NCBI RefSeq assembly: GCF_055900595.2
Contig: NZ_CM148325.1
DNA: 64,000 bases
Strand: one strand, 5' to 3'
The first letter of the stretch is position 1. The number at the start of each line of letters is the position of its first letter. The translations under genes were made by a program, and so were the position numbers. The notes beneath the pieces are model-generated. The model worked only from the letters and a program-made list of their open reading frames with translations, searched no databases and was not told the origin of the DNA. Below are positions 17,297-56,429 of the stretch, in pieces.

Positions 17297-17318
17297 AGTG
17301 TTGCCTTTTTGTTATCAA

Positions 17319-17349
17319 TAAAAAAGGCCCCCCGGTTTGGGAGGCCTTA
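17319..17349 (-). terminator. pheA attenuator terminator
   Basis: Minus-strand RNA AAGGCCTCCCAAACCGGGGGGCCTTTTTT between pheL and pheA. Confidence 0.8.
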
Positions 17350-17394
17350 TTGTTCGTCTTCGCATTCTGTTTCACACGACGAAACGCCTCCCAT

Positions 17395-17442
17395 TCAGGG
17401 GAAGGTAAAAAAGAATGCGAAGAAAAACGGTGTGTGTTTCAT
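17395..17442 (-). CDS. pheL: pheA leader peptide PheL (15 aa, Phe-rich)
   Basis: Minus-strand ATG at 17442 encodes [15 protein letters not shown]; not in ORF track because it is under 60 aa. Confidence 0.85.
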   Translation of the reverse strand: [15 protein letters not shown]

Positions 17443-17497
17443 GTTTGTTTCCTTAAGTGACTTCAGTACAGTACCCGTACTGTTTTCACGCTGTCAA

Positions 17498-18146: not shown

Positions 18147-18858
18147 TTAAGCAACTGACTGGCTCTTTTTCGGGGCTGTGGGGTATTTCCAGGGCCTCTC
18201 CTTTACCACTCTCGGGAAGGCCCTTTCCCTTCTTGTCGGTAATTTCACTGGTTGTCCCATACTTGCAAGATCGCGCATCAGCTCCGGTATACGTCCCGGT
18301 GAAGCGCATGGCGTCCGTCATCGACGTCAGCAGATGGCTGGTCAGTTCCATCTGGCAGACCATTTTGACCTGCGGGTAGAGCGCCGGGTTCTCGGCATGT
18401 GTCTGGCGGGGGAAGGCTGCATCGTTCTCTGGTGTATCCGGTGTGCGCCAGAACACACCATCGATGGCCAGCAGGGTCAGGCCGCACCAGTGCGGATGCA
18501 GCGTGGCGTTATGCCAGAGCTGCGCTGTTTTCGTGAACACGCGTCGGACAGCCTCACTTCCCAGGCGCTGGCGGGCCTGAATAACGGCACTGGGGGCAAC
18601 GAAGGGGCGATTGCCTGGCAGCATGATGTCCAGGCGATTCACAATCTGGTGAAGAGGTTCTTTACGCTCAAGCGCCATGCCAACAATACACCAGACCATC
18701 ATTTCGAGGGGAAGACGGCGCTTGCGTAGCGTTACAGTACCTGATTCGGCAAGGCAACGAGAGATGAGTTCGGGGTCGAGGTAATCCCCCAGAAAAGTCA
18801 GTGGGTTACGCAGAGAATCGTAACGGGATACCAAATCAAGGGCCTGTCCAATGAGCAT
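18147..18858 (-). pseudogene. IS4 transposase (InsG-like) pseudogene: N-terminal ~175 aa intact, then internal deletions and frameshift
   Basis: MLIGQALDLVSRYDSLRNPL...HLLT then jumps to SMTDAMRF and loses frame; 259-aa ORF versus 442 aa for intact IS4 transposase (length recalled from memory). Confidence 0.75.
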
Positions 18859-18894
18859 AAATAAATATCCTCCGGCATAGCCGGAGGTTTTTCA

Positions 18895-19607
18895 AATGCG
18901 CCTGTAAGGCTCTGTTACCAGCCGCGCCCTAACAGGCGCATACGATCTGACATTTGCATTCAACTTCGTTACTTACGGCCCGTAAACGGGCTGCCCGGAT
19001 ATGGAATCGATAACTGCTCCCCCATTTTATCCTCTTCAAGCTGGTGCTTTATGTAGTCCTGTATCTTCGCCGTGTTCTTACCCACCGTATCGACATAGTA
19101 CCCTCGGCACCAGAACTCCCTGTTTCTGTATTTGAATTTCAAATCCCCAAACTGCTCGTAAAGCATCAGACTGCTTTTCCCTTTCAGATATCCCATAAAG
19201 CCGGATACGCTCATTTTGGGTGGGATTTCCACAAGCATATGGATATGATCTGCGCAGCACTCTGCTTCCAGAATCCGTACGCTTTTCCACTCACACAGCT
19301 TTCTCAAAATACTGCCTATCGCCCTACGCTTCTCTCCGTAAAACGCCAGTCTTCGGTATTTCGGCGCAAAAACTATGTGATATTTACAGTTCCAGCGGGT
19401 GTGCGCTAAGCTCTTTTCGTCCCCCATTGGGACCCCCTTTTGATTTCTTGTTTGACACTTGCAGTTGCCAGACCGCAAGGTGTTTTAACAAATCAAAAGG
19501 GGTTTTAATAACTGGCTCAAAGCTGAAAGCTTTCCGGAACCCCCAGCCTAGCTGGGGGTTTTCTGTGCACAAAAAAATCCGGAAACGAGTGAGCGTTTCC
19601 GGATTCT
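18895..19607 (-). mobile_element. IS200-like element (IS200/IS605 family), approx. 0.71 kb, boundaries +/- ~20 bp
   Basis: Contains Y1/HUH transposase tnpA, a terminator-like perfect palindrome near the left end (19577-19603), a 5'-UTR palindrome (19540-19558) and a 10-bp inverted repeat after the stop (18896-18905 / 18932-18941); extent inferred from expected IS4 leader length. Confidence 0.7.
18969..19427 (-). CDS. tnpA: IS200 transposase TnpA (Y1 HUH single-strand transposase)
   Basis: MGDEKSLAHTRWNCKYHIVFAPKYRR...HIHMLVEIPPK... 152 aa; the HxH (HIHML) motif is directly visible; ORF-track start at 19478 is an upstream extension. Confidence 0.9.
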   Translation of the reverse strand: MGDEKSLAHTRWNCKYHIVFAPKYRRLAFYGEKRRAIGSILRKLCEWKSVRILEAECCADHIHMLVEIPPKMSVSGFMGYLKGKSSLMLYEQFGDLKFKYRNREFWCRGYYVDTVGKNTAKIQDYIKHQLEEDKMGEQLSIPYPGSPFTGRK

Positions 19608-19654
19608 TACACAGCCACTGAATCGGTCAACTGATCCTTAACTGATCGGCATTA

Positions 19655-19668
19655 CAGCTCAAGGGCTG
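19655..19668. repeat. Right copy of the direct repeat flanking the IS4 element
   Basis: cagctcaagggctg; with the left copy reconstructs an uninterrupted aaaaaaacggcagctcaagggctgccgttttttt terminator hairpin. Confidence 0.6.
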
Positions 19669-19692
19669 CCGTTTTTTTATTTCAATCTTCTG

Positions 19693-20430
19693 TTATGTAT
19701 TGCTGCTGTTAGCAGCGATAATCTTCGCTACCTTTTCAGCTTGCGCATTCATCTGCATCTGACGGTATGCATTTTCCATCAGCGGCAGCGCATCACGCGT
19801 AGCCTGGGTATCCGGATAGTCGCGCAACATGCCTTCTACGCGGTTAACGACAGCAACCCATGCACCACGTTCTGTATAATACTCGGCAACGGAGTATTCA
19901 TATTTCGCCAGACGATCTTTCAGGAATACCAGACGTTTGGTGGCATCGGTGGTGTACTGACTGTTCGGATAGCCGCGCACCAGTTTGGAAAAGTCACTAA
20001 ACGCAGCTCGTGCATGTTGAGGATCGCGATCGCTACGGTCAACGCCAAAGAACCCTTGCAGCGCACTGTCATCCAGCGCCATATTGGTCAGGCCACGCAT
20101 GTACATGACATAATCGATATTCGGATGGGTCGGGTTAAGGCGAATAAAACGATCGATGGCAGCCTGTGCTAACGGCAAATCGGCGTTTTTATAGTAGGCG
20201 TAGATGAGATCCAGCTGCACCTGCTGCGAATACGGACCAAACGGATAGCGATTATCTAACGCTTCCAGTTGCGTTATTGCCTGTCTCCAGTTACCGTCCT
20301 GCAGCTTTTGTTGTGCAGTCGCGTAAATTTCATTTGGCGGATTATCAGGTACTTCTTCCTTTGACCCCGAGCAACCCGCCAAAAACAGGCTTAGTGTGGC
20401 GGCTGCCACCAGATATTTCATGCGCGTCAT
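19693..20430 (-). CDS. bamD: Outer membrane protein assembly factor BamD (YfiO) lipoprotein
   Basis: [22 protein letters not shown]... 245 aa, TPR-like. Confidence 0.95.
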
Positions 20431-20564
20431 GACGTTTTGACTTTCCTCAAAATGTAATACGGGAGATTCTCTGTTCCTGCTCCCGGTTAAGACCAGCTAC
20501 AATAGCACACTATATTAAACGGCAAAGCCGTAAAACCCCAACGATAAACGAAGAAGCAGTATAT

Positions 20565-21545
20565 ATGGCACAACGAGTACAGCTCACTGCAACGGTGTCC
20601 GAAAACCAACTCGGTCAACGCTTAGATCAGGCTTTGGCCGAAATGTTCCCGGATTATTCACGTTCGCGAATAAAAGAATGGATCCTCGACCAGCGCGTGC
20701 TGGTTAACGGCAAAGTTTGTGATAAGCCGAAAGAAAAAGTATTGGGTGGCGAGCAGGTGGCCATCAACGCTGAGATTGAAGAAGAAGCGCGTTTTGAACC
20801 GCAGGATATCCCGCTGGATATCGTCTATGAAGATGAAGATATCATCGTCATTAATAAACCACGCGACCTGGTGGTACATCCTGGCGCGGGTAACCCGGAT
20901 GGCACGGTACTGAATGCGTTGCTTCATTATTATCCGCCCATTGCCGATGTACCGCGTGCGGGCATCGTCCATCGTCTGGATAAAGACACCACCGGCCTGA
21001 TGGTTGTGGCAAAAACCGTTCCGGCTCAGACGCGTTTAGTCGAATCTTTGCAACGGCGTGAAATTACTCGTGAGTATGAAGCGGTGGCAATTGGTCATAT
21101 GACCGCTGGCGGTACAGTAGATGAACCAATCAGCCGCCACCCGACCAAACGTACTCACATGGCGGTGCATCCGATGGGTAAACCGGCGGTCACTCACTAT
21201 CGCATCATGGAACACTTCCGTGTGCACACGCGTCTGCGGTTGCGTCTGGAAACCGGACGTACGCACCAGATCCGCGTGCATATGGCCCATATCACTCATC
21301 CGCTGGTGGGCGATCCGGTTTATGGCGGCCGTCCGCGTCCGCCAAAAGGTGCTTCGGAAGCGTTTATCTCCACGCTGCGTAAGTTTGACCGCCAGGCGCT
21401 TCATGCAACCATGCTGCGTCTTTATCACCCGATCTCCGGCATCGAAATGGAATGGCATGCGCCTATTCCACAAGATATGGTGGAGCTGATTGAGGTGATG
21501 CGCGCCGATTTCGAAGAGCATAAGGATGAAGTGGACTGGTTATGA
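20565..21545 (+). CDS. rluD: 23S rRNA pseudouridine synthase RluD
   Basis: 326 aa, S4 domain plus HRLDKDTTG catalytic motif. Confidence 0.95.
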   Translation: MAQRVQLTATVSENQLGQRLDQALAEMFPDYSRSRIKEWILDQRVLVNGKVCDKPKEKVLGGEQVAINAEIEEEARFEPQDIPLDIVYEDEDIIVINKPRDLVVHPGAGNPDGTVLNALLHYYPPIADVPRAGIVHRLDKDTTGLMVVAKTVPAQTRLVESLQRREITREYEAVAIGHMTAGGTVDEPISRHPTKRTHMAVHPMGKPAVTHYRIMEHFRVHTRLRLRLETGRTHQIRVHMAHITHPLVGDPVYGGRPRPPKGASEAFISTLRKFDRQALHATMLRLYHPISGIEMEWHAPIPQDMVELIEVMRADFEEHKDEVDWL

Positions 21546-22273
21546 GTAAGCTGATTGTCCCGCAGTGGCCGCTGCCAAAAGGTGTTGCGGCCTGTAGCTC
21601 TACCCGTATCGGCGGCGTGAGCTTGCCGCCGTATGACTCGCTCAACCTCGGTGCCCATTGTGGCGATAACCCGGATCACGTCGAGGAAAATCGTAAGCGA
21701 CTTTTTGCTGCGGGCAATTTGCCTTCAAAACCGGTCTGGCTTGAGCAGGTACACGGCAAAGATGTGCTTAATCTTACTGGCGAACCTTATGCCTCAAAAC
21801 GAGCGGATGCCTCTTATAGCAATACGCCCGGCACGGTTTGCGCCGTGATGACGGCTGACTGCCTCCCTGTGCTGTTTTGCAATCGAGCGGGAACGGAAGT
21901 CGCCGCCGCTCATGCTGGCTGGCGTGGACTGTGCGCAGGCGTGCTGGAAGAGACGGTTTCCTGTTTTGCTGATAATCCCGAAAACATTCTCGCCTGGTTA
22001 GGGCCGGCAATTGGTCCACGCGCGTTTGAAGTGGGAGCGGAGGTTCGCGAGGCGTTTATGGCAGTAGACGCCAAAGCGAGTGCAGCTTTCATTCAGCATG
22101 GAGATAAATATCTGGCGGATATTTATCAGCTTGCCCGGCAGCGTCTGGCGAACGTTGGTGTTGAGCAAATTTTCGGCGGCGACCGTTGTACATATACGGA
22201 AAATGAGACATTCTTCTCTTATCGTCGCGACAAGACCACCGGTCGTATGGCAAGTTTCATTTGGCTGATATAA
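21542..22273 (+). CDS. yfiH: YfiH/PgeF (DUF152, purine nucleoside phosphorylase / peptidoglycan editing factor family)
   Basis: 243 aa; overlaps rluD stop by 4 nt. Confidence 0.9.
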   Translation: MSKLIVPQWPLPKGVAACSSTRIGGVSLPPYDSLNLGAHCGDNPDHVEENRKRLFAAGNLPSKPVWLEQVHGKDVLNLTGEPYASKRADASYSNTPGTVCAVMTADCLPVLFCNRAGTEVAAAHAGWRGLCAGVLEETVSCFADNPENILAWLGPAIGPRAFEVGAEVREAFMAVDAKASAAFIQHGDKYLADIYQLARQRLANVGVEQIFGGDRCTYTENETFFSYRRDKTTGRMASFIWLI

Positions 22274-22334
22274 CCTAAAGAATCAAGACGATCCGGTACG
22301 CGTGATTTTCTTTTCACATTAATCTGGTCAATAA

Positions 22335-22364
22335 CCTTGAATAATTGAGGGATGACCTCATTTA
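22335..22364 (+). promoter_or_regulatory. Sigma-32 promoter of clpB
   Basis: ccttgaa (-35, 22335-22341) and cctcattta (-10, 22356-22364). Confidence 0.75.
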
Positions 22365-22402
22365 ATCTCCAGTAGCAACTTTGATCCGTTATGGGAGGAG
22401 TT

Positions 22403-24976
22403 ATGCGTCTGGATCGTCTTACTAATAAATTCCAGCTTGCTCTTGCCGATGCCCAATCACTTGCACTCGGGCACGACAACCAATTCATCGAACCACTTCA
22501 TTTAATGAGCGCCCTGCTGAATCAGGAAGGGGGTTCGGTTAGTCCTTTATTAACATCCGCCGGCATCAATGCTGGTCAGTTGCGCACAGATATCAATCAG
22601 GCATTAAATCGTTTACCGCAGGTTGAAGGCACTGGCGGCGATGTCCAGCCCTCACAGGATCTGGTGCGCGTTCTTAATCTTTGCGACAAGCTGGCGCAAA
22701 AACGTGGTGATAACTTTATCTCGTCAGAACTGTTCGTTCTGGCGGCACTTGAGTCTCGCGGCACGCTGGCCGACATCCTGAAAGCAGCAGGGGCGACCAC
22801 CGCCAACATTACTCAAGCGATTGAACAAATGCGTGGAGGTGAAAGCGTGAACGATCAAGGAGCTGAAGACCAACGTCAGGCTTTGAAAAAATACACTATC
22901 GACCTCACCGAACGAGCCGAACAAGGCAAACTCGATCCGGTGATTGGCCGTGATGAAGAAATTCGCCGTACCATTCAGGTACTGCAACGTCGTACTAAAA
23001 ATAACCCGGTGCTGATTGGTGAACCAGGCGTTGGTAAAACAGCCATCGTTGAAGGTCTGGCTCAGCGTATTATCAATGGCGAAGTGCCGGAAGGGTTGAA
23101 AGGCCGCCGCGTACTGGCGCTGGATATGGGCGCGCTGGTGGCTGGGGCGAAATATCGCGGTGAGTTTGAAGAGCGTTTAAAAGGCGTGCTTAACGATCTT
23201 GCCAAACAGGAAGGCAACGTCATCCTGTTTATCGACGAATTACATACCATGGTCGGCGCGGGTAAAGCCGATGGCGCAATGGATGCCGGCAACATGCTGA
23301 AACCGGCGCTGGCGCGTGGTGAATTGCACTGCGTAGGTGCCACGACACTGGACGAATATCGCCAGTACATCGAAAAAGATGCTGCGCTGGAACGTCGTTT
23401 CCAGAAAGTGTTTGTTGCCGAGCCAACCGTGGAAGACACCATTGCTATTCTGCGTGGCCTGAAAGAACGTTACGAACTGCACCACCATGTGCAAATTACT
23501 GACCCGGCAATTGTTGCAGCTGCGACATTATCTCATCGCTACATTGCTGACCGTCAGCTGCCGGATAAAGCCATCGACCTGATCGATGAAGCAGCATCCA
23601 GCATTCGTATGCAGATTGACTCAAAACCAGAAGAACTCGACCGACTCGATCGTCGTATCATCCAGCTCAAACTGGAACAACAGGCGTTAATGAAAGAGTC
23701 TGATGAAGCCAGTAAAAAACGCCTGGATATGCTCAACGAAGAACTGAGCGACAAAGAACGTCAGTATTCCGAGTTAGAAGAAGAGTGGAAAGCTGAGAAA
23801 GCGTCGCTTTCTGGTACGCAGACCATTAAAGCGGAACTGGAACAGGCGAAAATCGCCATTGAACAGGCTCGCCGTGTGGGTGATCTGGCGCGGATGTCTG
23901 AACTGCAATATGGCAAAATTCCAGAACTGGAAAAGCAACTGGAAGCCGCAACGCAGCTCGAAGGCAAAACTATGCGTCTCTTGCGTAATAAAGTGACCGA
24001 CGCCGAAATTGCTGAAGTGCTGGCGCGTTGGACGGGGATTCCGGTTTCTCGCATGATGGAAAGCGAGCGCGAAAAACTGCTGCGTATGGAGCAAGAGCTG
24101 CACCATCGCGTTATTGGTCAGAACGAAGCGGTTGATGCGGTATCTAACGCTATTCGTCGTAGCCGTGCGGGGCTTGCTGACCCGAATCGCCCGATTGGTT
24201 CATTCCTGTTCCTCGGCCCAACGGGTGTGGGGAAAACTGAGCTTTGTAAGGCGCTGGCGAACTTTATGTTTGATAGCGACGAGGCGATGGTCCGTATCGA
24301 TATGTCCGAGTTTATGGAGAAACACTCGGTGTCTCGTCTGGTTGGTGCGCCTCCGGGATATGTCGGTTATGAAGAAGGTGGCTACCTGACCGAAGCGGTG
24401 CGTCGTCGTCCGTATTCCGTCATCCTGCTGGATGAAGTGGAAAAAGCGCATCCGGATGTCTTCAACATTCTGTTGCAGGTACTGGATGATGGGCGTCTGA
24501 CTGACGGGCAGGGGAGAACGGTCGACTTCCGTAATACGGTTGTCATTATGACCTCTAACCTCGGTTCCGATTTGATTCAGGAACGCTTCGGTGAACTGGA
24601 TTATGCGCACATGAAAGAGCTGGTACTCGGTGTGGTAAGCCATAACTTCCGTCCGGAATTCATTAACCGTATCGATGAAGTGGTGGTCTTCCATCCGCTG
24701 GGTGAACAGCACATTGCGTCGATTGCGCAGATTCAGTTGAAACGTCTGTACAAACGTCTGGAAGAACGTGGTTATGAAATCCACATTTCTGACGAGGCGC
24801 TGAAACTGCTGAGCGAGAACGGTTACGATCCGGTCTATGGTGCACGTCCTCTGAAACGTGCTATCCAGCAGCAGATCGAAAACCCGCTGGCACAGCAAAT
24901 ACTGTCTGGTGAATTGGTTCCGGGTAAAGTTATTCGCCTGGAAGTTAATGAAGACAGGATTGTCGCCGTCCAGTAA
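22403..24976 (+). CDS. clpB: Chaperone ClpB (Hsp100 disaggregase)
   Basis: [27 protein letters not shown]... 857 aa, two AAA+ modules; ORF-track 22391 start is 4 codons upstream. Confidence 0.96.
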
Positions 24977-24981
24977 TGATA

Positions 24982-25008
24982 AAACGAGTCCTTCGGGGCT
25001 CGTTTTTG
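24982..25008 (+). terminator. clpB terminator
   Basis: aaacgagtccttcggggctcgttttt hairpin plus T-run. Confidence 0.7.
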
Positions 25009-25090
25009 TCTATAAATTAGACGGAAAAGACTATATTCAAGATGTTTTGCCTGAAAAATGAGCGAACGATAAAGTTTTTATATTTTTCGC

Positions 25091-25118
25091 TTGTCAGGCC
25101 GGAATAACTCCCTATAAT
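25091..25118 (+). promoter_or_regulatory. rRNA operon promoter P1
   Basis: ttgtca -N16- tataat followed by GC-rich discriminator gcgccacc; AT-rich UP-element-like sequence upstream. Confidence 0.8.
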
Positions 25119-25208: not shown

Positions 25209-25236
25209 TTGACTCTGAAGCGGGAAAGCGTATTAT
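25209..25236 (+). promoter_or_regulatory. rRNA operon promoter P2
   Basis: ttgact -N16- tattat followed by GC-rich discriminator. Confidence 0.8.
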
Positions 25237-25417: not shown

Positions 25418-26959
<1,542 letters not shown>

Positions 26960-27044
26960 CCTTAAAGAACTGTTCTTTGCAGTGCTCACACAGATTGTCT
27001 GATAGAAAGTGAAAAGCAAGGCGTCTTGCGAAGCAGACTGATAC

Positions 27045-27120
27045 GTCCCCTTCGTCTAGAGGCCCAGGACACCGCCCTTTCACGGCGGTAACAGGGGTTC
27101 GAATCCCCTAGGGGACGCCA
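27045..27120 (+). tRNA. gltW: tRNA-Glu (UUC) in the 16S-23S spacer
   Basis: GTCCCCTTCGTCTAGAGGCCCAGGACACCGCCCTTTCACGGCGGTAACAGGGGTTCGAATCCCCTAGGGGACGCCA. Confidence 0.97.
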
Positions 27121-27314
27121 CTTGCTGGTTTGTGAGTGAAAGTCGCCGACCTTAATATCGTTAAAGATGACTTACGAGTCATGTTTAAGATATTTGCTCT
27201 TTAAAAATCTGGATCAAGCTGAAAATTGAAACACTGAACAATGAAAGTTGTTCGTGAGTCTCTCAAATTTTCGCAACACGATGATGAATCGAAAGAAACA
27301 TCTTCGGGTTGTGA

Positions 27315-30219
<2,905 letters not shown>

Positions 30220-30312
30220 ACAACGCCGAAGATGTTTTGGCGGATTGAGAGAAGATTTTCAGCCTGATACAGATTAAATCAGAACGCAGAAGCGGTCTGA
30301 TGAAACAGAATT

Positions 30313-30432
30313 TGCCTGGCGGCCTTAGCGCGGTGGTCCCACCTGACCCCATGCCGAACTCAGAAGTGAAACGCCGTAGCGCCGATGGTAGTGTGGGGTC
30401 TCCCCATGCGAGAGTAGGGAACTGCCAGGCAT
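30313..30432 (+). rRNA. rrfG: 5S ribosomal RNA
   Basis: TGCCTGGCGGC...GGAACTGCCAGGCAT, 120 nt. Confidence 0.97.
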
Positions 30433-42075: not shown

Positions 42076-42272
42076 TGCCGGGCTTAAACCCGGCACCTAA
42101 CTTGTCGACGAAGTGCGTTTTGTTCATGCCGGATGCGGCGTGAACGCCTTATCCGGCCTACAAGATCGTGCAAATTCAATATATTGCATGAGCCATGTAG
42201 GCCTGATAAGCGTAGAGCATCAGGCAGTTTTGCGTTTGCCAGCACTTTTAATTCCGGGCTTAAACCCGGAAT
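42076..42272. repeat. BIME: two inverted REP elements flanked by near-identical ccgggcttaaacccgg palindromes
   Basis: REP gccggatgcggcgtgaacgccttatccggcctac (42128-42161), inverted REP gtaggcctgataagcgtagagcatcaggc (42197-42225), palindromes at 42078-42093 and 42255-42270. Confidence 0.75.
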
Positions 42273-47753: not shown

Positions 47754-48709
47754 TGAAGCAACTTTGGTTTGCCATGTCATTAGTGACAGGTAGCCTGTTA
47801 TTCTCTGCTAACGCCTCGGCCACTCCCGCGTCCGGGGCGTTATTACAGCAGATGAACCTGGCCAGTCAGTCACTGAATTACGAGCTGTCATTCATCAGCA
47901 TCAATAAACAGGGTGTTGAGTCTCTGCGTTATCGACATGCACGCCTCGATAACCGTCCTCTTGCACAATTGTTGCAAATGGATGGCCCGCGCCGGGAAGT
48001 GGTACAGCGCGGCAATGAAATCAGCTACTTTGAACCGGGCCTTGAACCGTTCACGCTTAATGGCGATTACATTGTTGATTCTCTGCCATCGCTCATCTAT
48101 ACCGATTTCAAACGCCTTTCTCCTTACTACGACTTTATCTCCGTGGGACGCACGCGTATTGCTGATCGTCTTTGCGAAGTCATTCGCGTGGTGGCCCGTG
48201 ATGGCACACGCTACAGCTACATCGTGTGGATGGACACCGAATCGAAATTACCGATGCGGGTTGATCTCCTTGATCGCGATGGTGAAACGCTGGAACAATT
48301 TCGCGTGATTGCTTTTAACGTTAATCAGGATATCAGCAGCAGTATGCAGACGCTGGCGAAAGCAAATCTGCCGCCGCTGCTTTCTGTTCCTGTAGGTGAA
48401 AAAGCTAAATTCAGCTGGACGCCAACCTGGTTGCCACAGGGGTTTAGTGAAGTTTCCAGCAGCCGACGTCCGTTACCGACGATGGACAACATGCCTATCG
48501 AATCACGTCTCTATTCCGACGGATTATTCAGCTTCTCGGTAAACGTTAACCGCGCTACGCCATCGAGCACCGATCAGATGTTGCGCACCGGACGCAGAAC
48601 CGTCAGTACAAGCGTACGTGATAACGCCGAAATCACCATTGTCGGCGAACTGCCGCCGCAAACGGCGAAACGCATTGCCGAGAATATTAAGTTCGGGGCA
48701 GCGCAATGA
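47753..48709 (+). CDS. rseB: Sigma-E regulatory protein RseB
   Basis: 318 aa with signal peptide. Confidence 0.95.
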   Translation: MKQLWFAMSLVTGSLLFSANASATPASGALLQQMNLASQSLNYELSFISINKQGVESLRYRHARLDNRPLAQLLQMDGPRREVVQRGNEISYFEPGLEPFTLNGDYIVDSLPSLIYTDFKRLSPYYDFISVGRTRIADRLCEVIRVVARDGTRYSYIVWMDTESKLPMRVDLLDRDGETLEQFRVIAFNVNQDISSSMQTLAKANLPPLLSVPVGEKAKFSWTPTWLPQGFSEVSSSRRPLPTMDNMPIESRLYSDGLFSFSVNVNRATPSSTDQMLRTGRRTVSTSVRDNAEITIVGELPPQTAKRIAENIKFGAAQ

Positions 48710-49185
48710 TCAAAGAGTGGGCTACGGTCGTCTCCTGGCAAAACGGGCAGGCGCTGGTCAGTTGTGATGTTAAAGCCTCATGCAGCAGCTGTGCTTCCCG
48801 TGTCGGTTGCGGTAGCCGCGTGCTGAATAAACTTGGCCCACAAACCACGCATACCATTGTCGTACCCTGTGATGAACCGTTAGTACCGGGGCAAAAAGTG
48901 GAATTAGGAATCACCGAAGGCAGCCTGCTTAGCTCCGCATTACTGGTTTATATGTCGCCGTTGGTGGGATTATTCCTCATCGCTTCGTTATTTCAGCTAC
49001 TCTTTGCTTCAGATCTTGCAGCATTATGCGGTGCGATTCTCGGCGGCGTTGGTGGATTCCTGATTGCACGCAGCTACTCGCGAAAGTTTGCTGCCCGGGC
49101 AGAATGGCAACCGATCATCTTAAGCGTGGCATTGCCGCCAGGCCTTGTGCGATTTGAAACATCTTCGGAAGACGCGAGCCAGTGA
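48706..49185 (+). CDS. rseC: Sigma-E regulatory protein RseC
   Basis: 159 aa membrane protein; overlaps rseB stop by 4 nt. Confidence 0.93.
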   Translation: MIKEWATVVSWQNGQALVSCDVKASCSSCASRVGCGSRVLNKLGPQTTHTIVVPCDEPLVPGQKVELGITEGSLLSSALLVYMSPLVGLFLIASLFQLLFASDLAALCGAILGGVGGFLIARSYSRKFAARAEWQPIILSVALPPGLVRFETSSEDASQ

Positions 49186-49382
49186 TTTCACTGGCTTTGT
49201 TGCATTTTGCATAACAAATGCGAGGACGTTTCCAGATACCACAATCCATACCGTATGAACATTTCCTCGCCTCAATGTTGTAGTGTAGAATGCGGCGTTT
49301 CTATTAATACAGACGTTAAGCTCAGAACAGCGACTTCTAAAAGCCTGGTTAACCGGGCATTAAGGCACAATAATCATACTTT

Positions 49383-51182
<1,800 letters not shown>

Positions 51183-52172: not shown

Positions 52173-52318
52173 TAGCTTATCTTCGTTCACGTTGTCGCCG
52201 TTATGGCGACAACGTGAATTATTTATGAGATAAATCCCCCGTGGCTAACGACATCCCCCGTCGTTGTGTATAGAATATTCCCCCGAAGTTTAAGGTTGGC
52301 ACCTCCAGGTTGCCACGG

Positions 52319-52410
52319 CACACGAAACAGCGTTGGTCCCCATATACCGGTAAACTGAAACTGCAGCGAAGCAGTTAGCAGAGCCATGTATATCAGGTCT
52401 GTTTCGTGTG
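52319..52410 (+). promoter_or_regulatory. rnc leader long stem (RNase III autoregulatory processing structure)
   Basis: 12-bp perfect inverted repeat cacacgaaacag (52319-52330) / ctgtttcgtgtg (52399-52410) in the 5' UTR of rnc. Confidence 0.65.
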
Positions 52411-52414
52411 CTGA

Positions 52415-54027
<1,613 letters not shown>

Positions 54028-56029: not shown

Positions 56030-56072
56030 AAAAGTAAAACCCCCGAACTGGTAAGGAACGGGGGTTTTACTT
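56030..56072. terminator. Terminator hairpin downstream of acpS
   Basis: aaaacccccgaactggtaaggaacgggggtttt flanked by A/T runs. Confidence 0.7.
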
Positions 56073-56429
56073 TACAACTTTAATTTTGTGCAGCACACGA
56101 TTCCAACAAAAATGATTATGGATCAATTTAGTTATCCTGTACAAGCAACTTGCAATCTTTAGCATAAAAACTCGAGCCTTTACGAAGAAATCGATATTGA
56201 TGAAAAGATTAACGTGACCGCTTTTTGATAAGTACATTAGAATCGGCGTCGTTATTGGATATTTTGCTGTGTTCTACGCCATGCCACTGAATTCCCCCAT
56301 TGAAACGAGTGGTGTCGTCAAAGCTCTGGTGTGGAGTGCGGCACTCGATTCCAATAACTCGCACGTTCAGTTTTGGGGAGATGTAAGGGCTAATCTGAAC
56401 GGCTGCATTCCTTGTTTAAGGAAAAACGA

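Follow-up and report, generated by a model that had tools for sequence, protein, structure and literature searches.

Escherichia coli K-12 reportedly makes its ClpB disaggregase in two forms by dual initiation on clpB, a description credited by later papers to Squires 1991, Park 1993 and Nagy 2010, and the ratio of the short to the long form is said to go up under thermal stress, a result that citing papers attribute to Chow and Baneyx 2005. Ribo-RET located a specific initiating-ribosome peak at the internal site of E. coli clpB, and the same study, which cites Park 1993 for clpB, counts this gene together with infB and mrcB as the three in E. coli whose internal starts had been characterised before (bioRxiv 10.1101/520783); Ribo-RET or Western evidence of initiation at this site has already been published for both K-12 and BL21. 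The internal start of E. coli ClpB has been named as the GUG at Val149 (PMC6168691). The two products, ClpB95 and ClpB80, form hetero-oligomers (mixed hexamers) that act synergistically, reactivating aggregates better than either form alone according to papers citing Nagy 2010. The infB (IF2-alpha/beta) and mrcB (PBP1b) genes resemble clpB in that one mRNA with an in-frame internal start yields an N-terminally shortened isoform, all of them being detected by Ribo-RET. The proteins are unrelated, however, and in clpB internal initiation leaves out exactly one structural domain, the boundary falling in a flexible linker.

The ClpB-L/ClpB-S pair of Salmonella Typhimurium, although from another species, depends on the homologous GTG at nt 445 (Val149), as validated there by chromosomal mutagenesis (PMC11005335). 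Chromosomally tagged Salmonella clpB gave two bands, the lower being about nine-fold weaker, and replacement of GTG-445 by CTT left the long form only, with ClpB-S abolished, whereas both bands remained after mutation of ATG-427 (Met143) (PMC11005335). The isoform ratio in this species has been reported to differ under infection-like conditions. Actual initiation at codon 149 in E. coli and Salmonella and the synergy of the hetero-oligomers are thus matters of published record. Mycobacterium tuberculosis, Synechococcus, Leptospira and others are also reported to make an N-terminally shortened ClpB, with an internal start close to the linker that joins the N-terminal domain (NTD) to the first AAA+ module (NBD1); the Leptospira start is an ATG, unlike GTG149 of E. 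coli, and these distant two-isoform cases may be independent acquisitions or may use other codons.

The window analysed here is a stretch of 64,000 nucleotides in which clpB is an intact 2574-nt ORF of 857 codons, running from ATG to TAA on the + strand (Table 1). The region 22200-25100 occurs in 5425 of 5426 complete genomes, and several E. coli chromosomes match it with 100% identity. In the RefSeq annotation of the identical DNA, clpB begins at the position equal to 22403, the same ATG that an earlier sequence-only reading had assumed. Another in-frame ATG lies 12 nt 5' of the annotated start (22391-22393, +), within the primary Shine-Dalgarno sequence (tATGGGAGGAGTTATG), and is the reason why the mechanical ORF list gives 861 aa for clpB; it has no Shine-Dalgarno (SD) sequence of its own and is ignored by annotation.

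Class-1 AAA+ disaggregases of the ClpB/Hsp104 type consist, in order, of N-terminal Clp_N repeats, the AAA+ module NBD1, a coiled-coil middle domain/lid, the AAA+ module NBD2 and a C-terminal D2-small domain. The clpB product has this order according to Pfam, with two Clp_N stretches (the best at residues 17-68) followed by AAA (203-336), AAA_lid_9 (342-442), AAA_2 (596-760) and ClpB_D2-small (766-845), all far above the cut-offs. E. coli ClpB chains in the PDB (4d2q, 6rn2, 6oax) align over residues 1-857 with 1850-1860 bits. The gene order of the identical E. coli locus (bamD, rluD, yfiH, clpB, ribosomal RNA operon) is the same as in K-12. With respect to dual initiation nothing relevant distinguishes the window from K-12, since it has the same gene, the same GTG149 and an identical SD, spacer and start sequence, although its clpB is a rare allele with ~3% mostly synonymous differences.

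Several other features were noted around the gene. Just after the clpB terminator lie two near-consensus sigma-70 promoters on the + strand (TTGTCA-16-TATAAT at 25091-25118 and TTGACT-16-TATTAT at 25209-25236), and downstream of them a complete rrn operon (rRNA genes 25418-30430) with 16S, spacer tRNA, 23S and 5S, the spacer tRNA being tRNA-Glu per the annotation of the identical E. coli locus. The two promoters look like the usual tandem arrangement of E. coli rrn operons. On the other side, the annotation of identical genomes has an IS200/IS605-family tnpA and a transposase of the IS4 family just upstream of bamD (about 18600-19600), an arrangement that no more than 15 E. coli genomes share over at least 80% of 18600-21500, and a match to the Rfam family STnc490 (19437-19560, - strand) falls inside this IS stretch.

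Table 1. Coordinates of the clpB features and of other Rfam matches in the window.
Feature	Position	Strand	Remarks and basis
Phe leader	17318-17443	-	Rfam gathering-level match
Sigma-32-type promoter-like motif CTTGAA-N14-CCTCATTT	22336..22363	+	Some 40 nt 5' of the clpB ATG
Primary-start Shine-Dalgarno GGGAGGAG	22393..22400	+	Read from sequence; anti-SD duplex -10.2 kcal/mol
clpB CDS, full-length isoform ClpB95, 857 aa, 95.6 kDa	22403..24976 (stop codon included)	+	ORF and translation
Codons 1-148, N-terminal substrate-binding domain and start of linker, long isoform only	22403..22846	+	
Met143 ATG, rejected alternative internal start	22829..22831	+	Anti-SD duplex -1.4 kcal/mol
Internal Shine-Dalgarno GGAGGTG	22835..22841	+	Codons Arg144-Gly145-Gly146 (CGT GGA GGT); anti-SD duplex -10.6 kcal/mol
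Internal GTG start codon	22847..22849	+	Val149 in elongation, fMet when initiating; sequence, conservation and literature
ClpB80 short-isoform frame, 709 aa, 79.9 kDa, N-terminus MNDQGAEDQ	22847..24976	+	Computed from sequence
Intrinsic terminator, hairpin and T-run	24978..25010	+	Directly 3' of the clpB stop; fold -17.6 kcal/mol
ES036	42162-42204	+	Rfam gathering-level match
AsrC, antisense to rseC	48670-49501	-	Rfam gathering-level match
rncO	52285-52499	+	Rfam gathering-level match
ohsC	56031-56107	-	Rfam gathering-level match

The sequence-only reading had pointed to the E. coli internal start near codon 149 and had proposed to look there for a GTG or ATG with an upstream Shine-Dalgarno sequence. 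Both are present. Position 22403 + 3 x 148 = 22847 is the first letter of a GTG exactly at codon 149, and a GGAGG at 22835-22839 precedes it with a 7-nt spacer, in the context ATG CGT GGA GGT GAA AGC GTG. GTG 22847 consequently shows what is expected of a functional in-frame internal start, namely a start codon with an SD sequence 5-10 nt upstream. When the 17 nt upstream of each start-like codon were scored for pairing with the 3' end of 16S rRNA, GTG149 ranked first among the 50 in-frame ATG/GTG/TTG codons (-10.6 kcal/mol), followed by the annotated start (-10.2 kcal/mol), the next best codon reaching -6.4 kcal/mol. Across all three frames of clpB, the annotated ATG and GTG149 are the only sites at -8 kcal/mol or better. 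The joint occurrence of GTG149 and SD pairing at codon 149 is more than chance. The site falls in the NTD-NBD1 linker: in a cryo-EM study the NTD ends at residue 142 and NBD1 begins at 161, and delta-N ClpB constructs in the PDB begin at residue 143 or 150. The isoform sizes computed from the two starts agree with the ClpB95/ClpB80 pair of the literature.

Six codons upstream of GTG149 lies the in-frame ATG of Met143, which could in principle be the true beginning of the short isoform. ATG is the stronger start codon, this one was picked by an automated start-site caller from the Salmonella Ribo-RET data (PMC11005335), and Met143 is kept in 26 of 28 close orthologs. The ATG has essentially no SD sequence, however, the GGAGG being located downstream of it, and the two close orthologs with CTG or TTA at codon 143 retain GTG149. 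In addition, it is the GTG mutant of Salmonella that loses the short isoform, while the ATG mutant keeps both (PMC11005335). The weak duplex (-1.4 kcal/mol) and this mutagenesis led to the rejection of Met143, which is very unlikely to be the start.

The explanation proposed for the locus is one clpB mRNA with two in-frame translation starts, and dual initiation at ATG 22403 and GTG 22847 almost certainly gives rise to ClpB95 and ClpB80 from that mRNA. Transcription would probably begin from the sigma-32-type promoter and would end at the hairpin that follows the stop codon, a single heat-inducible mRNA serving both isoforms. Initiation at ATG 22403 would produce full-length ClpB95. Ribosome binding at the internal GGAGG and initiation at GTG 22847 would produce ClpB80, which would be without the 148-residue N-terminal substrate-binding domain and would retain the middle domain together with both AAA+ rings.

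A single heat-inducible message carrying two starts is the simplest model because there is a lone sigma-32-type match, a 3' terminator and no internal sigma-70-like promoter on the + strand. The pattern CTTGAA-N12-16-CCNCATNT has a single match in the 64-kb window (22336-22363), with 0.04 expected, and this putative promoter agrees with the sigma-32 type, in which a -35 CTTGAA and a -10 resembling CCCCATNT stand about 13-15 nt apart upstream of the gene. We take the CTTGAA-type motif to be the sigma-32 consensus and clpB to belong to the sigma-32 regulon. The terminator was missed by the terminator scanner and was shown by direct folding, in which its fold had z = -6.05 and 0 of 200 shuffles were as stable.

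Alternatively, a transcript that begins inside the gene, or proteolysis that clips ClpB95 in the linker, might account for the 80-kDa species, the GTG and its SD sequence being incidental. Clipping is made conceivable by the flexible and exposed nature of linker residues 142-161, and an internal transcript has been suggested in the literature for Leptospira clpB. Against the latter, the + strand of clpB yielded no internal sigma-70-like promoter. Both possibilities leave unexplained the invariance of GTG149 and of the SD core at synonymous positions (see below), and neither accords with the abolition of the short form in Salmonella by a single start-codon mutation (PMC11005335). We consider them extremely unlikely, even less probable than a start at Met143.

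The promoter region of clpB also gives a gathering-level match to the RyfD (Ysr155) sRNA family of Rfam (125 bits, 22284-22422, + strand), which takes in the yfiH-clpB spacer, the sigma-32-like promoter and the leader of clpB and extends 20 nt into the coding sequence. RyfD is described in the literature as an sRNA of unknown function that adjoins clpB and overlaps the 5' end of that gene on the same strand. It may be an attenuated leader of the clpB mRNA, or else an independent transcript that begins upstream of the promoter.

An RNA thermometer, or any other gating of the internal start by RNA structure, was considered and rejected. The local fold at the internal start is no more stable than shuffles (z = -1.02), no conserved RNA structure was found over the site, the alignment fold of 28 orthologs leaving both the SD sequence and the GTG unpaired, and the opening energy declines smoothly with temperature at both starts. 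In local folds at 37 C the opening cost is 12.2 kcal/mol at the internal site versus 7.7 kcal/mol at the primary one, and this higher predicted cost would fit the lower yield reported for the short form, about nine-fold less in Salmonella.

Selection on the start itself was assessed from codon choice at the aligned column, with expectations taken from each gene's own codon usage or from synonymous recoding of the same peptide. These tests replaced a count of any start codon plus SD in the linker versus equal-sized windows, because conserved protein motifs encode SD-like strings; that count had shown no enrichment in 95 diverse ClpB genes and is confounded by such motifs. A search of metagenome contigs with a longer (18-residue) protein pattern provided the close-relative set of 119 usable orthologs, at 63-100% protein identity. 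At 83% protein identity or above, GTG149 is present in all 34 unique orthologs, against 14.1 expected from Val codon usage, and 32 of the 34 have a GGAG/GAGG core 5-18 nt upstream of codon 149, against 9.6 expected from synonymous recoding. The SD core is spelled through different codon solutions among these orthologs (cgN-GGA-GGn in most, cGA-GGn or aGA-GGn in others), which indicates selection on the RNA signal and not on the peptide. The recoding p-values per single sequence are modest (median 0.15) because the R-G-G-x-x-V motif already biases the DNA towards G-rich, SD-like strings.

Shared ancestry does not account for the conservation of GTG149, since the 28 unique full-length close orthologs have a mean pairwise synonymous codon difference of 0.45, and only four of the 352 columns with an invariant amino acid of 4-fold or higher degeneracy have an invariant codon (codons 6, 149, 631 and 650). 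Column 149 is also the only one of the 38 invariant Val columns that is always GTG. Taken as codon-choice evidence, these data point to purifying selection on GTG149 and the SD core at synonymous sites in close relatives. Synonymous diversity is somewhat lowered just 3' of codon 149 (0.33-0.36 versus 0.45) and falls further, to about 0.2, after the primary start; no extended synonymous constraint was found upstream of the site, windows from codons 129-140 having average or above-average diversity.

The picture is different outside this group. A broad sample of 120 loci was collected from species-representative genomes with a degenerate pattern for a 10-residue motif located ~30 codons downstream, so that the choice of loci did not depend on the site. 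Among the 95 ClpB genes that could be used, drawn from many phyla, 64 have Val at column 149 and 27 have Ala, within a conserved R-G-x-x-x-V-T/D motif, and GTG is not enriched there (20 observed versus 26.7 expected from each gene's Val codon usage). Enrichment is equally missing among the orthologs below 80% identity (30 GTG of 74 versus 30.3 expected), where SD cores are depleted (8 of 78 versus 19.6 expected). The depletion was seen in the column of 22829-22843 in the gammaproteobacterial-like loci below 80% identity (L125-L244), though their peptide is R-G-G; it is consistent with avoidance of internal SD-like sequence where no internal start is used. Strong sites do exist at column 149 in a few distant sequences, such as L013 (Fundicoccus), L177, L192 and L196, which look like independent occurrences.

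These data bear on a third alternative, in which the SD sequence and the GTG simply follow from the conserved R-G-G-x-x-V protein motif and play no part in initiation in this lineage. Val at column 149 is indeed a conserved protein feature, GTG is no commoner there in the broad sample than Val codon usage predicts, and Arg-Gly-Gly codons are inherently G-rich. The clade of the window sequence, however, is far from neutral in both GTG and SD core, the same place in distant relatives has fewer SD cores than expected, and for E. coli (bioRxiv 10.1101/520783) and Salmonella (PMC11005335) there is direct experimental evidence. This explanation has a negligible probability, the smallest of the three.

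Returning to dual initiation, broad phylogenetic conservation cannot serve as support for the start, because GTG is not enriched at column 149 in the broad sample. Within the samples, Val149 is a conserved protein residue in many bacteria, and codon choice points to start selection only in the close relatives of E. coli. We lean, with little more than even confidence, towards an internal start restricted to the clade near E. coli (at least 83% ClpB identity, presumably Enterobacterales), as opposed to the start conserved across bacteria that some papers deduce from protein alignments. On such a reading the R-G-x-x-x-V-T/D motif would act as a pre-adaptation, from which an SD sequence and a GTG would arise by codon choice, repeatedly and independently, and the sporadic strong sites of unrelated taxa (L013, L177, L192 and L196) fit this.

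Within E. coli, the clpB allele of the window is rare: over 2.9 kb, only 14 of 5425 genomes match it at 99% identity or more. Three common alleles depart from it by about 35 mostly synonymous changes per 1.1 kb (about 3.3% of sites), one amino-acid difference being seen (Thr342 in the window, Ser in the common alleles). Of the 5,424 genomes that match the 71 nt around this start, only 18 reach 99% identity and the other 5,406 stay below it. The only difference from the three aligned common alleles in these 71 nt is a synonymous one at 22861, 12 nt past the GTG, codon 153 reading GGA in the window and GGT in those alleles; the SD sequence, spacer and GTG are identical. The GGA creates an AAGGAG at 22856-22861 (+), 9-14 nt downstream of GTG149, with no ATG, GTG or TTG at SD spacing after it. 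This AAGGAG is probably without effect, although it could affect ribosomes that have just initiated at the internal start. Between 22651 and 22861 (210 nt) there are zero differences from the common E. coli alleles, with P about 0.013 for a gap that long. Constraint as the cause of this invariant stretch was discarded, being unsupported by the synonymous diversity of diverged orthologs, and mosaic ancestry (recombination) or chance is more likely.

The clpB internal start of the window is the already known ClpB95/ClpB80 arrangement, that is, textbook biology and not a novel finding. The present analysis shows the signals in the sequence, that they are unique in clpB, and that purifying selection acts on GTG149 and its SD core among close relatives. 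We infer that the strain of the window behaves as E. coli and Salmonella do at this site. The sole and modest addition is the comparative result on codon-level selection, which leaves current understanding unchanged. It advises caution, since conservation of Val149 in protein alignments is not the same as conservation of a start site in distant bacteria, and the description of the internal-start GTG as 'highly conserved' (PMC6168691) should be read with the caveat that codon selection is seen only in close relatives. For annotation, the one clpB CDS record stands for two proteins, ClpB95 and ClpB80, whose mixture improves disaggregation according to the literature.
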